IMG/VR virus record: IMGVR_UViG_3300003316_000399
Coordinates: 1-64,000 of that record
DNA: 64,000 nucleotides
Direction: 5' to 3' (one strand)
Source: a virus
Taxonomy: Duplodnaviria; Caudoviricetes
Shown: positions 1-13,693 of the stretch, in pieces
Layout: every line of letters begins with the position of its first letter
Position numbering within the stretch: the stretch's first letter is position 1
The notes under the pieces: generated by a model
What the model was told of the DNA's origin: nothing
The model's database searches: none
The model's input: only the letters and a program-made list of their open reading frames with translations
Made by a program: the position numbers and the translations under genes

Positions 1-1329
1 CTAAGACGCCTCTTCCAGATCAACATATGCTTCATTGCTCTTGATCAAACCCTCCAGCTCATAGAAGATTTCAGATTTAGACTTTATAAATTCAACGCCG
101 CCGTCATTTGACTCGCAGCGCAATACAATACCCTCACGTATATGATTACCCAACTCATTCGCAGCATTAGTATAATATTTTACCATCTCACACATGCGAT
201 GATATGATTCTTCAGTTCCGTCGTAATACATTACTGTGTCGAGCGGCACAGGTGTTAAACCAAGTGATCGACAGGCTGCCACCATCTGAGACCATGATAA
301 ATCAAACGCATTACCATCAGGTCCCACCTGAGTGACGCGATATACAAACAGTTTTAATTCTCCAGGATCACAACCATACGTATATCGCATTGTATCGCCA
401 TAACGTTGCTTGAGACTAGGAAATTTATGCAGTGGTTGCGGCTCCATAATTAATTCTGTGCTATTATGATAACCTACCAGCTCATAATAAATCATCATTC
501 CTTTTGGTAACTTAATACCACGGAGAGAACTGGCACGAAATGTGTTATCCCCATAATATCCATTATATGGGTTCTTCATTACATCCTCTGCAGTACCGAG
601 GATAAGAGTGCGAGTCCCAATAATGTGTTTCCACACCATCGGAACATTATTAGCAATTCCTAGACATGATTGTAGCCATCGGACAAAGCGATTTTTAACG
701 TCGTTCAACAACGGCGCGTCAAATGGAATATTGCCAAAGCGCCCGCTTGTGCCATGCAGTTTGTGAGTGAATACAATCACACCAGGCTTAATCGCGCGTG
801 AATGTGCAAAGAAATGCTGACTCTTCACGTGATCAGGAAACATCGGGTGTGTAACACGCACGGCTTTGTATCGTGCTGCAATGGCTGCCAGGGTTGCTAG
901 TGTATGCCGCTTGCGAAAAATAGGGAAAAATTTCCCGTCATCTCGCTGCCATCCAGACCAGCTAAAATCATCTGCCGCGTTGCACCATTCACCCTGAGTA
1001 AGATTACGAGTTTGACAGTCATCAATGTAATCGAGATATTTTAATGGGCACCAAAATCCTGTGCTACGGACACCTCTGAAATTCTGTGCGCGAACACTTC
1101 CATTATCCTCAAAATAGCCACCTAAATCACGATAAAGCTTGTTAGCGGTGAGAAAATCTGCATGCAACTCTCCATCTGAGGGGAAAAAGATTCCTACATC
1201 ACCATCCTGTGTGTCAAGACTTACAATAACCGTCGCGCTTAATGTATCGTTGTTAGGCACCGCGATTTTGATGCGATCTGCATTTGGATGCTGACGTGTT
1301 ACTACGGATGTAATATATGCTTTGTACAT
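1..1329 (-). CDS. ATP-dependent RNA ligase (DRB0094/Rnl2-like) with N-terminal OB-like domain
   Basis: Nucleotidyltransferase motif I KLHGT, motif IV REGIVLR and motif V FIKSKS; N-terminal HPNADRI typical of the DRB0094 family; near Pnkp. Confidence 0.88.
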   Translation of the reverse strand: MYKAYITSVVTRQHPNADRIKIAVPNNDTLSATVIVSLDTQDGDVGIFFPSDGELHADFLTANKLYRDLGGYFEDNGSVRAQNFRGVRSTGFWCPLKYLDYIDDCQTRNLTQGEWCNAADDFSWSGWQRDDGKFFPIFRKRHTLATLAAIAARYKAVRVTHPMFPDHVKSQHFFAHSRAIKPGVIVFTHKLHGTSGRFGNIPFDAPLLNDVKNRFVRWLQSCLGIANNVPMVWKHIIGTRTLILGTAEDVMKNPYNGYYGDNTFRASSLRGIKLPKGMMIYYELVGYHNSTELIMEPQPLHKFPSLKQRYGDTMRYTYGCDPGELKLFVYRVTQVGPDGNAFDLSWSQMVAACRSLGLTPVPLDTVMYYDGTEESYHRMCEMVKYYTNAANELGNHIREGIVLRCESNDGGVEFIKSKSEIFYELEGLIKSNEAYVDLEEAS

Positions 1330-13044: not shown

Positions 13045-13109
13045 ACCGACCAGCTACAACATTGTAGGCGAATTGTGTACGACGCGGTAAAGACAATTCT
13101 CTGGTCGGT
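13045..13109 (-). ncRNA. putative structured small RNA (three-way junction)
   Basis: 9-bp closing stem ACCGACCAG/CTGGTCGGT enclosing hairpins GAATTGT/ACAATTC and CTACA/TGTAG; lies between tRNA genes. Confidence 0.5.
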
Positions 13110-13124
13110 AAGGAATAAATTAGC

Positions 13125-13228
13125 CACAGCCAGTAGGATTTGCACCTACAACAGTATTTCGGAGTGTGCATTCCCCGCTTTATCGGCTTATAAAAGCCGC
13201 CGTTTTTACTAATTAAACTATGGCTGTG
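13125..13228 (-). ncRNA. atypical tRNA-like RNA (8-nt anticodon loop, extra-long variable region)
   Basis: ACAGCCA/TGGCTGT acceptor, GTTT/AAAC D stem, CGGC-TTTTATAA-GCCG, extra hairpin CGGGG/CTCCG, GTAGG-TGCAAAT-CCTAC T arm. Confidence 0.7.
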
Positions 13229-13232
13229 ATAA

Positions 13233-13321
13233 TGGAGCGCAGCGGAATTGAACCGCTCTGCCGTCCACGAAGACGGCATATATGGCCCTGGCGTAAGGCC
13301 GGATCTTCCAGATCGCGCCCC
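13233..13321 (-). ncRNA. atypical tRNA-like RNA with alanine identity (G3:U70, A73)
   Basis: GGGGCGC/GCGCTCC-A acceptor, AGCGG-TTCAATT-CCGCT T arm, 7-bp extra arm TGCCGTC/GACGGCA, non-canonical D and anticodon arms. Confidence 0.7.
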
Positions 13322-13476
13322 ACAATATTAGATATTGTGTATGCCTGTCTCTCTGCTTTACTTGCGCTTACAGGCAACACCTTACGGTAAAAGGCAAGTT
13401 TTAAGGCTGCAGAGCTACCCACAGTCATTATAATTTCACGGTGTACGTCAGACTACGAATTAAGTACATCCGCACT

Positions 13477-13551
13477 TGGGAATGAGGACGGAATCGAACC
13501 GTCTCCGTGCGCTATCGCCGCACTACATCTACCAATGATGTTACGATTCCC
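13477..13551 (-). ncRNA. degenerate or atypical tRNA-like RNA (GAT at the anticodon position)
   Basis: ACATC/GATGT D stem, GTGCG-GCGATAG-CGCAC, GACGG-TTCGATT-CCGTC T arm, bulged GGGAAT/ATTCCC acceptor. Confidence 0.6.
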
Positions 13552-13664: not shown

Positions 13665-13693
13665 ATTGTAACACAGTGTACCATATTTGTCAA
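13665..13693 (-). promoter_or_regulatory. sigma70-type promoter of the tRNA/small-RNA cluster
   Basis: TTGACA-17nt-TACAAT with TGTGT extended -10, about 35 nt upstream of tRNA-Ile. Confidence 0.85.

Follow-up and report, generated by a model that had tools for sequence, protein, structure and literature searches.

A five-armed tRNA look-alike related to tRNA-Lys in a phage tRNA operon

Phage tRNA genes take part in the conflict over defence systems that cut tRNA. Here, we examine a locus whose RNA keeps the stems of a tRNA while carrying an enlarged anticodon loop and an additional hairpin, raising the question of whether it decodes, has been disabled, or serves some other end. We find that it is a genuine, structurally maintained, tRNA-derived gene. 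Our preferred reading, to which we give a probability of roughly 45%, is that of a maintained, five-armed tRNA look-alike that does not decode.

The operon and the fold of the RNA

The window analysed comprises the opening 64,000 nucleotides of an IMG/VR virus record of 91.6 kb (CheckV completeness 53%, class ‘provirus’) with a GC content of 41%. Under the standard code, 91% of the record falls in open reading frames (ORFs) of at least 100 amino acids and 96% in a simple gene set; the coding density is 95%. The DNA polymerase A (PolA) of this phage shares at most 28% identity with that of any cultured phage, placing it far from cultured phages, and a sigma-70 promoter together with an Amidase_2 lysin marks its host as bacterial. 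Over its final 3.6 kb (88000-91632), the record has a GC content of 57-60%, compared with 41% elsewhere, and overlapping ORFs on both strands; this end is host flank or an assembly chimera, and no family match in it points to a host.

The tRNA genes of the phage, namely Arg(UCU), Lys(UUU), Gly(UCC), Ile(UAU) and Leu(UAA), all lie on the minus strand. The operon promoter (Table 1) heads a 0.9-kb stretch devoid of any credible ORF, in which tRNA-Ile(UAU) is followed by a GAU-loop tRNA-like element, a spacer, an Ala-type tRNA-like RNA, the RNA under study (hereafter the target), a three-way junction, tRNA-Gly and tRNA-Lys. The target gene lies 4 nt past the tRNA-like gene that precedes it, in the same orientation. 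In this operon, irregular elements roughly equal canonical tRNAs in number, and all of the irregular ones are well folded, which in a genome of ~95% coding density argues against their being junk.

Table 1. Positions in the window of the target RNA, its parts, and the other features discussed
Feature	Positions	Strand	Basis or detail
Whole tRNA-like gene (target), 103 nt	13125..13227	-	Rfam RF00005, 46.9 bits, model 1-71
Acceptor 5' strand ACAGCCA	13221..13227	-	7/7 pairs with 13126-13132; pair probabilities 0.75-1.0
Acceptor 3' strand UGGCUGU	13126..13132	-	Sequence
D arm: stem GUUU/AAAC, 9-nt loop AAUUAGUAA	13202..13218	-	Infernal alignment
Anticodon arm GCGGC/GCCGA, G27.A43 mismatch as in tRNA-Lys	13183..13200	-	Sequence and alignments
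Anticodon loop UUUUAUAA, 8 nt	13188-13195	-	Within anticodon arm
Extra arm, 28 nt: UA / AAG / CGGGG-AAUGCACA-CUCCG / AAA / UA	13155..13182	-	Clean insertion relative to tRNA-Lys (R1)
Variable loop CUGUU (tRNA-Lys: GUGUU)	13150..13154	-	R1 alignment
T arm: stem GUAGG/CCUAC, loop UGCAAAU (G55 for U55)	13133..13149	-	Sequence, Infernal alignment
Three-way junction RNA, 65 nt	13045-13109	-	Fold z -3.8; helices intact
Ala-type tRNA-like RNA, 90 nt	13233-13322	-	Fold z -4.1; helices intact
GAU-loop tRNA-like element	13478-13551	-	Helices intact
Operon promoter TTGACA-17-TACAAT with extended -10 TG	13665..13693	-	11/12 consensus matches, sigma-70
Phage tRNA-Lys(UUU)	12949-12875	-	Anticodon arm GCGGC-CUUUUAA-GCCGA
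Polynucleotide kinase-phosphatase (Pnkp), T4-type, 302 aa	2924-3832	-	HAD_PNKP 125 bits, AAA_33 57 bits
RNA ligase	1-1329	-	PF09414

A reading of the letters without database searches (the sequence-only reading) had proposed a tRNA-like RNA at this locus, with intact acceptor, D and T stems, a TGCAAAT T loop, an 8-nt anticodon loop and an anticodon stem in common with tRNA-Lys. All of these features are borne out on the minus strand. The Rfam tRNA model RF00005, whose gathering score is 29, matches over all of its positions 1-71 at 46.9 bits (window E value 7e-7), and the sequence has every stem of the tRNA cloverleaf intact, comprising a 7-bp acceptor and D, anticodon and T arms. Its fold has a z-score of -3.47, with none of 200 shuffled sequences as stable, and its own model, R1, returns 136 bits on the target as a positive control. 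ARAGORN at default settings misses the gene. In full, the RNA reads ACAGCCA UA GUUU-AAUUAGUAA-AAAC G GCGGC-UUUUAUAA-GCCGA [UAAAG CGGGG-AAUGCACA-CUCCG AAAUA] CUGUU GUAGG-UGCAAAU-CCUAC UGGCUGU G. The final G, at 13125, is the discriminator, with no encoded CCA after it, and C13228 is able to pair with it to give an eighth acceptor pair.

Counted on the 104-nt string, the extra arm runs from U47 to A74, with position 43 on its 5' side and a complete variable loop of 5 nt on its 3' side. Accordingly, the variable-region expansion that had been proposed stands in part: the CGGGG/CTCCG hairpin is present, carried on the 28-nt arm, but the variable loop itself, CUGUU, is complete and not expanded. 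Since the arm does not replace the 44-48 variable loop, the target is not a class II tRNA (Ser/Leu/Tyr/Sec) either. Two other origins for the arm were rejected: an archaeal-type intron, on account of the bacterial host, and a mobile repeat, as the insert has no second copy in the 91.6-kb record.

In a nearest-neighbour model without tertiary contacts, the cloverleaf lies 5-7 kcal/mol above the minimum free energy (MFE) structure, which swaps the D stem (probability ~0.25) for an alternative helix, AACGG/CUGUU (~0.38). ViennaRNA additionally predicts two extra U-A pairs (probabilities 0.99 and 0.89) that narrow the anticodon loop to a UUAU tetraloop. The self-complementary tetranucleotide UGCA occurs both in the T loop (13138-13144) and in the loop of the extra arm (13165-13172). 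A contact between the two loops is possible, the modelled duplex reaching -7.7 kcal/mol with G53 included, and a chance match is the alternative; such a contact could account for G55.

Other ways of reading the locus were tried and rejected. Against protein coding, the two ORFs over the element, of 116 aa (minus strand) and 83 aa (plus strand), run into bona fide tRNA genes and match no Pfam family. A plus-strand terminator at 13184-13209, formed by the anticodon hairpin and CCGTTTTTAC, is one site where 1.4 are expected by chance, with no plus-strand genes upstream. At the 80% threshold only, relaxed ARAGORN offers two alternative parses, tRNA-?(tgca) and ‘Ile with an 8-nt intron’, both with mispaired stems.

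Kinship with tRNA-Lys and the possibility of a relic

Once the insert is taken out, identity between the target and the tRNA-Lys of the same phage is 66%, more than with any of the six further tRNA or tRNA-like genes compared (47-59%). R1 gives tRNA-Lys 39.2 bits, its joint-highest score apart from the target itself (a five-arm Ile tRNA scores equal), and aligns it to the target with one loop gap and a clean 28-nt gap. Furthermore, the two anticodon stems are identical, down to the G27.A43 mismatch, and shared anticodon stems are rare: the 56 ordinary tRNAs of the phage clade make 1540 pairs, of which just 2 have a stem in common. The T stem, in turn, is exactly that of the tRNA-Lys of the nearest IMG/VR relative of the phage, G001. 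On this evidence, the target is a paralogue of the phage tRNA-Lys(UUU), its closest kin among the genes compared.

Between the two genes, eight stem pairs differ on both sides (four in the acceptor, three in the D stem and one in the T stem) with none broken, one pair has changed on one side only (G.U to G-C), and all 21 stem positions of the target are as good as in tRNA-Lys. As eight two-sided changes have broken no pair, the cloverleaf has been kept during divergence, unlike that of a long-dead gene.

Searches for an orthologue covered several collections. Megablast and blastn against 50,697 phage records returned nothing beyond matches generic to tRNAs and one of 20 nt in the T arm, exact and gapped pattern scans of IMG/VR gave no match, and R1 found none in 49 related viral records, in an insensitive pass that also missed ordinary tRNAs found by cmsearch. 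The flanking 170-aa protein and PolA, as single queries, retrieved no close relatives from IMG/VR, and among 5.8 billion proteins none exceeded 54% identity to the 170-aa protein. A PolA alignment (A1) recovered IMG/VR relatives at 35-43% identity, and against genome and metagenome contigs none above 33% among the matches listed; PolA relatives at 45-50% identity do exist, mostly in Logan/NCBI contigs (P0109-P0131).

The 20-nt T-arm match is present in about 105 Klebsiella phage records. For example, in Klebsiella phage Roth22 (PQ657795 49544-49620; L001:555-631) it lies in an odd tRNA, annotated as Gln there and as Leu in sister phages, which has a poor D arm, the same GUAGG-UGCAAAU-CCUAC T arm as the target over 20 nt, and an Rfam score of 23 bits, and which ARAGORN misses. 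In a 359-kb IMG/VR phage (L256:4147-4178), a 3' acceptor strand and ACCA come after the T arm GUAGG-UGCGAAU-CCUAC, and upstream there is no 5' acceptor strand that would match; this element resembles a tRNA 3' half with a G55 T loop.

Most IMG/VR PolA relatives have ordinary tRNAs. G001 (42% PolA identity, 105.9 kb) has several irregular ones, among them a 115-nt tRNA-Lys paralogue (L085:1807-1921) whose D and T stems are identical to those of its tRNA-Lys; the acceptor stem of this paralogue differs and is fully paired, its discriminator is U, and 51 nt take the place of the anticodon loop. Beside it lies a Glu-like gene (L085:1924-2042) with an insert of ~45 nt, and further along a D-armless tRNA-Arg(UCU)-like gene (L085:2871-2945) with a 16-nt variable region, an encoded CCA and an Rfam score of 31.8 bits. 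Remodelled tRNA-Lys paralogues that keep the upper tRNA half thus recur in the clade, and orthology between those of the target phage and G001 is not demonstrable. Within L085:1630-2000 of G001 (contig 84130-84500), a hairpin followed by the motif UAAC(A/U)GC occurs in four copies in ~400 nt, two of them inside the Lys-like and Glu-like tRNA genes, and has the look of a module that was inserted or of a signal specific to the phage.

These observations bear directly on the first alternative to a maintained look-alike, namely that two insertions, one of 1 nt in the anticodon loop and the other of 28 nt, recently disabled a duplicated tRNA gene, which is still transcribed and processed with the operon but functionless. 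Odd or pseudo-tRNAs are frequent in phage tRNA arrays, both lesions are of types that usually inactivate a tRNA, the searches above yielded no orthologue, and the target is redundant beside the canonical Lys and Ile(UAU) genes of its operon. Against this stand the 21 of 21 sound stem positions despite eight two-sided changes, the regularity of the insert, which is a proper hairpin placed exactly at the arm site of functional five-arm phage tRNAs, the compactness of a genome with ~95% coding density, and the equally good folds of the neighbouring irregular RNAs. We consider a recent relic somewhat unlikely.

Departures from a decoding tRNA

Several features set the target apart from tRNAs that read codons. 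In a decoding tRNA, the anticodon loop is expected to have 7 nt, including U33 and a purine in position 37; the target loop, UUUUAUAA, has eight nucleotides, whereas all 56 of the clade tRNAs have seven. In place of G18 G19 and U54 U55 C56, the target has A18 G19 and U54 G55 C56, while 54 of the 56 clade tRNAs carry UUC in the T loop. Its discriminator is G, where the Lys and Ile genes of the phage have A. TGC for TTC in the T loop marks Staphylococcus tRNA-Gly species that bind EF-Tu and the ribosome poorly (PMC7826273). These non-proteogenic tRNAs share with the target the combination of a TGC T loop and an altered D loop, but they have a 7-nt anticodon loop and four arms, are charged and feed Fem transferases (PMC7826273), whereas the target has an 8-nt loop and five arms, and no aminoacyl-tRNA transferase family was found among the ORFs neighbouring it. 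A UGC T loop is nevertheless no proof of exclusion from translation, since an otherwise canonical tRNA-Arg(UCU) in a relative (G002) has the T loop UGCAAUU.

Five-armed tRNAs and look-alikes in other phages offer the closest architectural comparisons. A gapped pattern scan uncovered phage five-arm tRNA-Ile(UAU) genes with a GAU-bearing second arm (e.g., L261:6706-6796), which resemble the target in having a hairpin directly 3' of the anticodon arm followed by a variable loop of ~5 nt (R1 alignment), a UUAUAA-type loop, a place in a phage tRNA cluster and a length of about 90-106 nt. They differ in their 7-nt anticodon loop, their GAU-bearing 7-nt second loop and their A73, where the target has 8 nt, AAUGCACA and G73, together with its UGC T loop. 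Because of the 8-nt loop, the lack of a GAU loop and G73, the target is not a member of this UAU+GAU group.

A second comparison comes from rV5-type phages (Vequintavirinae), in which a five-armed, Lys-like look-alike (NC_011041 62223-62319) is conserved in 126 records, mostly unannotated or labelled tRNA-OTHER, TERM or Lys. Its extra hairpin covaries, and its anticodon-like loop varies by lineage: UUUUUAA in rV5, UUUAUAA in Av-05 and CCAUCAG in a Seunavirus. Like the target, it belongs to a tRNA operon and has a U-rich Lys- or UAU-type loop, a 5-bp extra hairpin, A-rich linkers and AAUAC just past the hairpin; it departs from the target in the D arm, the linkers, the T loop and the discriminator. 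The model of this family, R2, which has a conserved D arm and the linkers GAAAAUA and GAAUACAUA, gives the target 20.0 bits with filters off, compared with 18.6 for the canonical tRNA-Ile, and does not report it at default filters. As the score is about that of an ordinary tRNA-Ile, membership of the rV5-type family is unsupported, and the likeness, as far as the alignments tell, is architectural and short of homology.

The same comparisons favour, up to a point, a second alternative, in which the target is a five-arm tRNA that reads the AUA triplet with anticodon UAU, the extra U lying 5' of U33. Infernal sets the extra base between positions 32 and 33 and so reads U33-UAU-A37-A38; in its last seven bases, UUUAUAA, the target loop is the same as that of the rV5-family member Av-05, and position 32 alone separates these bases from the CUUAUAA of G001 tRNA-Ile(UAU). 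The extra arm occupies the same site as in the UAU+GAU five-arm tRNAs, and AUA is a frequent codon (16 per thousand). Moreover, triplet decoding by an 8-nt loop has a precedent in yeast mitochondrial tRNA-Thr(UAG) (PMC3113583). Other features oppose such a decoder: the discriminator is G, not the A73 of the canonical Ile(UAU) here and of the five-arm members read, the second arm has no GAU loop, the T loop is UGC, position 18 is A, and the anticodon stem is of the Lys rather than the Ile type. A canonical tRNA-Ile(UAU) is already encoded 330 nt upstream in the operon and, with Lys(UUU) alongside, no extra decoder is needed. Overall, we regard AUA decoding as unlikely.

An 8-nt anticodon loop is also the classic sign of +1 suppressors, and E. 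coli has ochre suppressors derived from tRNA-Lys; the sequence-only reading had suggested a frameshift or ochre suppressor, which here would read AUAA through UUAU, or UAA/UAAA as a tRNA-Lys derivative. Engineered quadruplet tRNAs work in all isoacceptor classes (PMC9094753), and both the +1 suppressors (PMC9094753) and the mitochondrial tRNA-Thr(UAG) (PMC3113583) share the 8-nt loop with the target; the target, however, has further departures from a decoder, and the genome shows no use for such decoding. We judge recoding highly improbable: the standard code already gives 91-96% ORF coverage; TAA is the main stop (73 of 133 genes) with no enrichment of back-up stops, the next in-frame stop lying a median of 13 codons after TAA, no closer than after TAG (10) or TGA (5); AUA followed by A is not avoided in frame (125 of 470, 29.5% expected, z -1.4); the overlaps of adjacent +1 gene pairs contain no ATAA in frame; and UUA as an ochre anticodon would put U at position 37. 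No split gene in the ~53% of the genome examined needs AUAA or UAA recoding, although a gene that does could sit in the remaining part, and an efficient reader of UAA or AUAA would harm the phage's own proteins.

A non-decoding look-alike and a possible bait

For the maintained look-alike that we prefer, the following course would account for the features described. The target would be transcribed from the strong operon promoter within a polycistronic pre-tRNA, and its intact acceptor/T branch would let host tRNA-processing enzymes excise it. The G discriminator, UGC T loop, A18, closable 8-nt loop and extra arm would bar it from ordinary Lys or Ile decoding, while the Lys-type anticodon stem, U-rich loop and new hairpin would still be displayed.

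What such an RNA might be displayed to is suggested by two other genes of the phage. Pnkp and RNA ligase (Table 1) are the classical pair for healing and sealing tRNA, and their presence makes nuclease pressure on tRNA-Lys plausible. In T4, Pnkp and Rnl1 mend tRNA-Lys cut by PrrC (PMC10264068). PARIS AriB recognises the anticodon stem-loop of tRNA-Lys and cuts between positions 40 and 41 (PMC11464382), and the part that it recognises is the part that the target has in common with tRNA-Lys. By analogy, a phage under such pressure could gain from an RNA showing a Lys-type anticodon arm. The target may then be, much as the sequence-only reading had suggested, a bait or competitor for a host factor that binds or cuts this arm, that is, a non-chargeable tRNA-Lys mimic soaking up or blocking a PrrC-, RloC- or PARIS-type nuclease, acting beside the spare tRNA-Lys and the Pnkp/RNA-ligase repair pair.

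We consider this more specific version improbable. A bait should mimic the host tRNA-Lys, yet the arm copies the phage's own. Further points weigh on any maintained, non-decoding look-alike: no orthologue was found by the searches described, hence conservation and covariation lend the RNA itself no support; the cloverleaf is predicted to lie above the MFE structure, with a weak D stem in the nearest-neighbour model; and arms at the position of the extra arm occur in tRNAs that, by sequence, look like real AUA decoders. The literature searched holds no tested decoy or non-decoding RNA bait of this kind. The known parallels share Pnkp, RNA ligase and a phage-encoded tRNA-Lys(UUU) with the target's phage, as when T5 tRNA-Lys counters PARIS AriB and T4 Pnkp plus Rnl1 counter PrrC (PMC11464382, PMC10264068), but these counter-measures are repair enzymes or decoding-competent replacement tRNAs, whereas the target is probably non-decoding.

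Whatever its function, the target belongs with the irregular tRNAs and tRNA look-alikes (Mukai 2017) that phages carry and is not a new class. The irregular tRNAs and allo-tRNAs of that study (PMC5389517) likewise come from polycistrons that mix regular and irregular tRNA-shaped genes, and they too have UAU-type loops, extra or long arms (‘five-stem-junction’ folds) and G73; the soil-metagenome allo-tRNA(UAU) species tested were inactive in translation (PMC5389517). The target is not itself an allo-tRNA: its acceptor/T branch is 7/5 (8/5 with C-1:G73) where allo-tRNAs have 8/4 or 9/3. Allo-tRNAs, moreover, come from Acidobacteria and other bacteria, near toxin-antitoxin genes, while the target is Lys-derived and lies in a phage tRNA operon.

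To our knowledge, every phage case worked out so far is a decoding replacement tRNA or a repair enzyme. Beside these, the target is a well-folded look-alike, derived from tRNA-Lys, that probably does not decode, and its phage carries the repair pair; its interest lies chiefly in this combination of Lys kinship with tRNA-repair genes. It also joins a growing set of five-armed RNAs from phage operons that standard finders miss or mislabel. If these RNAs are relics, annotation pipelines should flag them rather than label them tRNA-Lys, tRNA-Ile or suppressor. If the bait version were true for the target, it would be an RNA-based counter-defence against tRNA-cutting immunity, absent from the literature searched; and should RNAs of this type turn out to be baits, carriers or regulators, they would constitute a new functional class of phage non-coding RNA.
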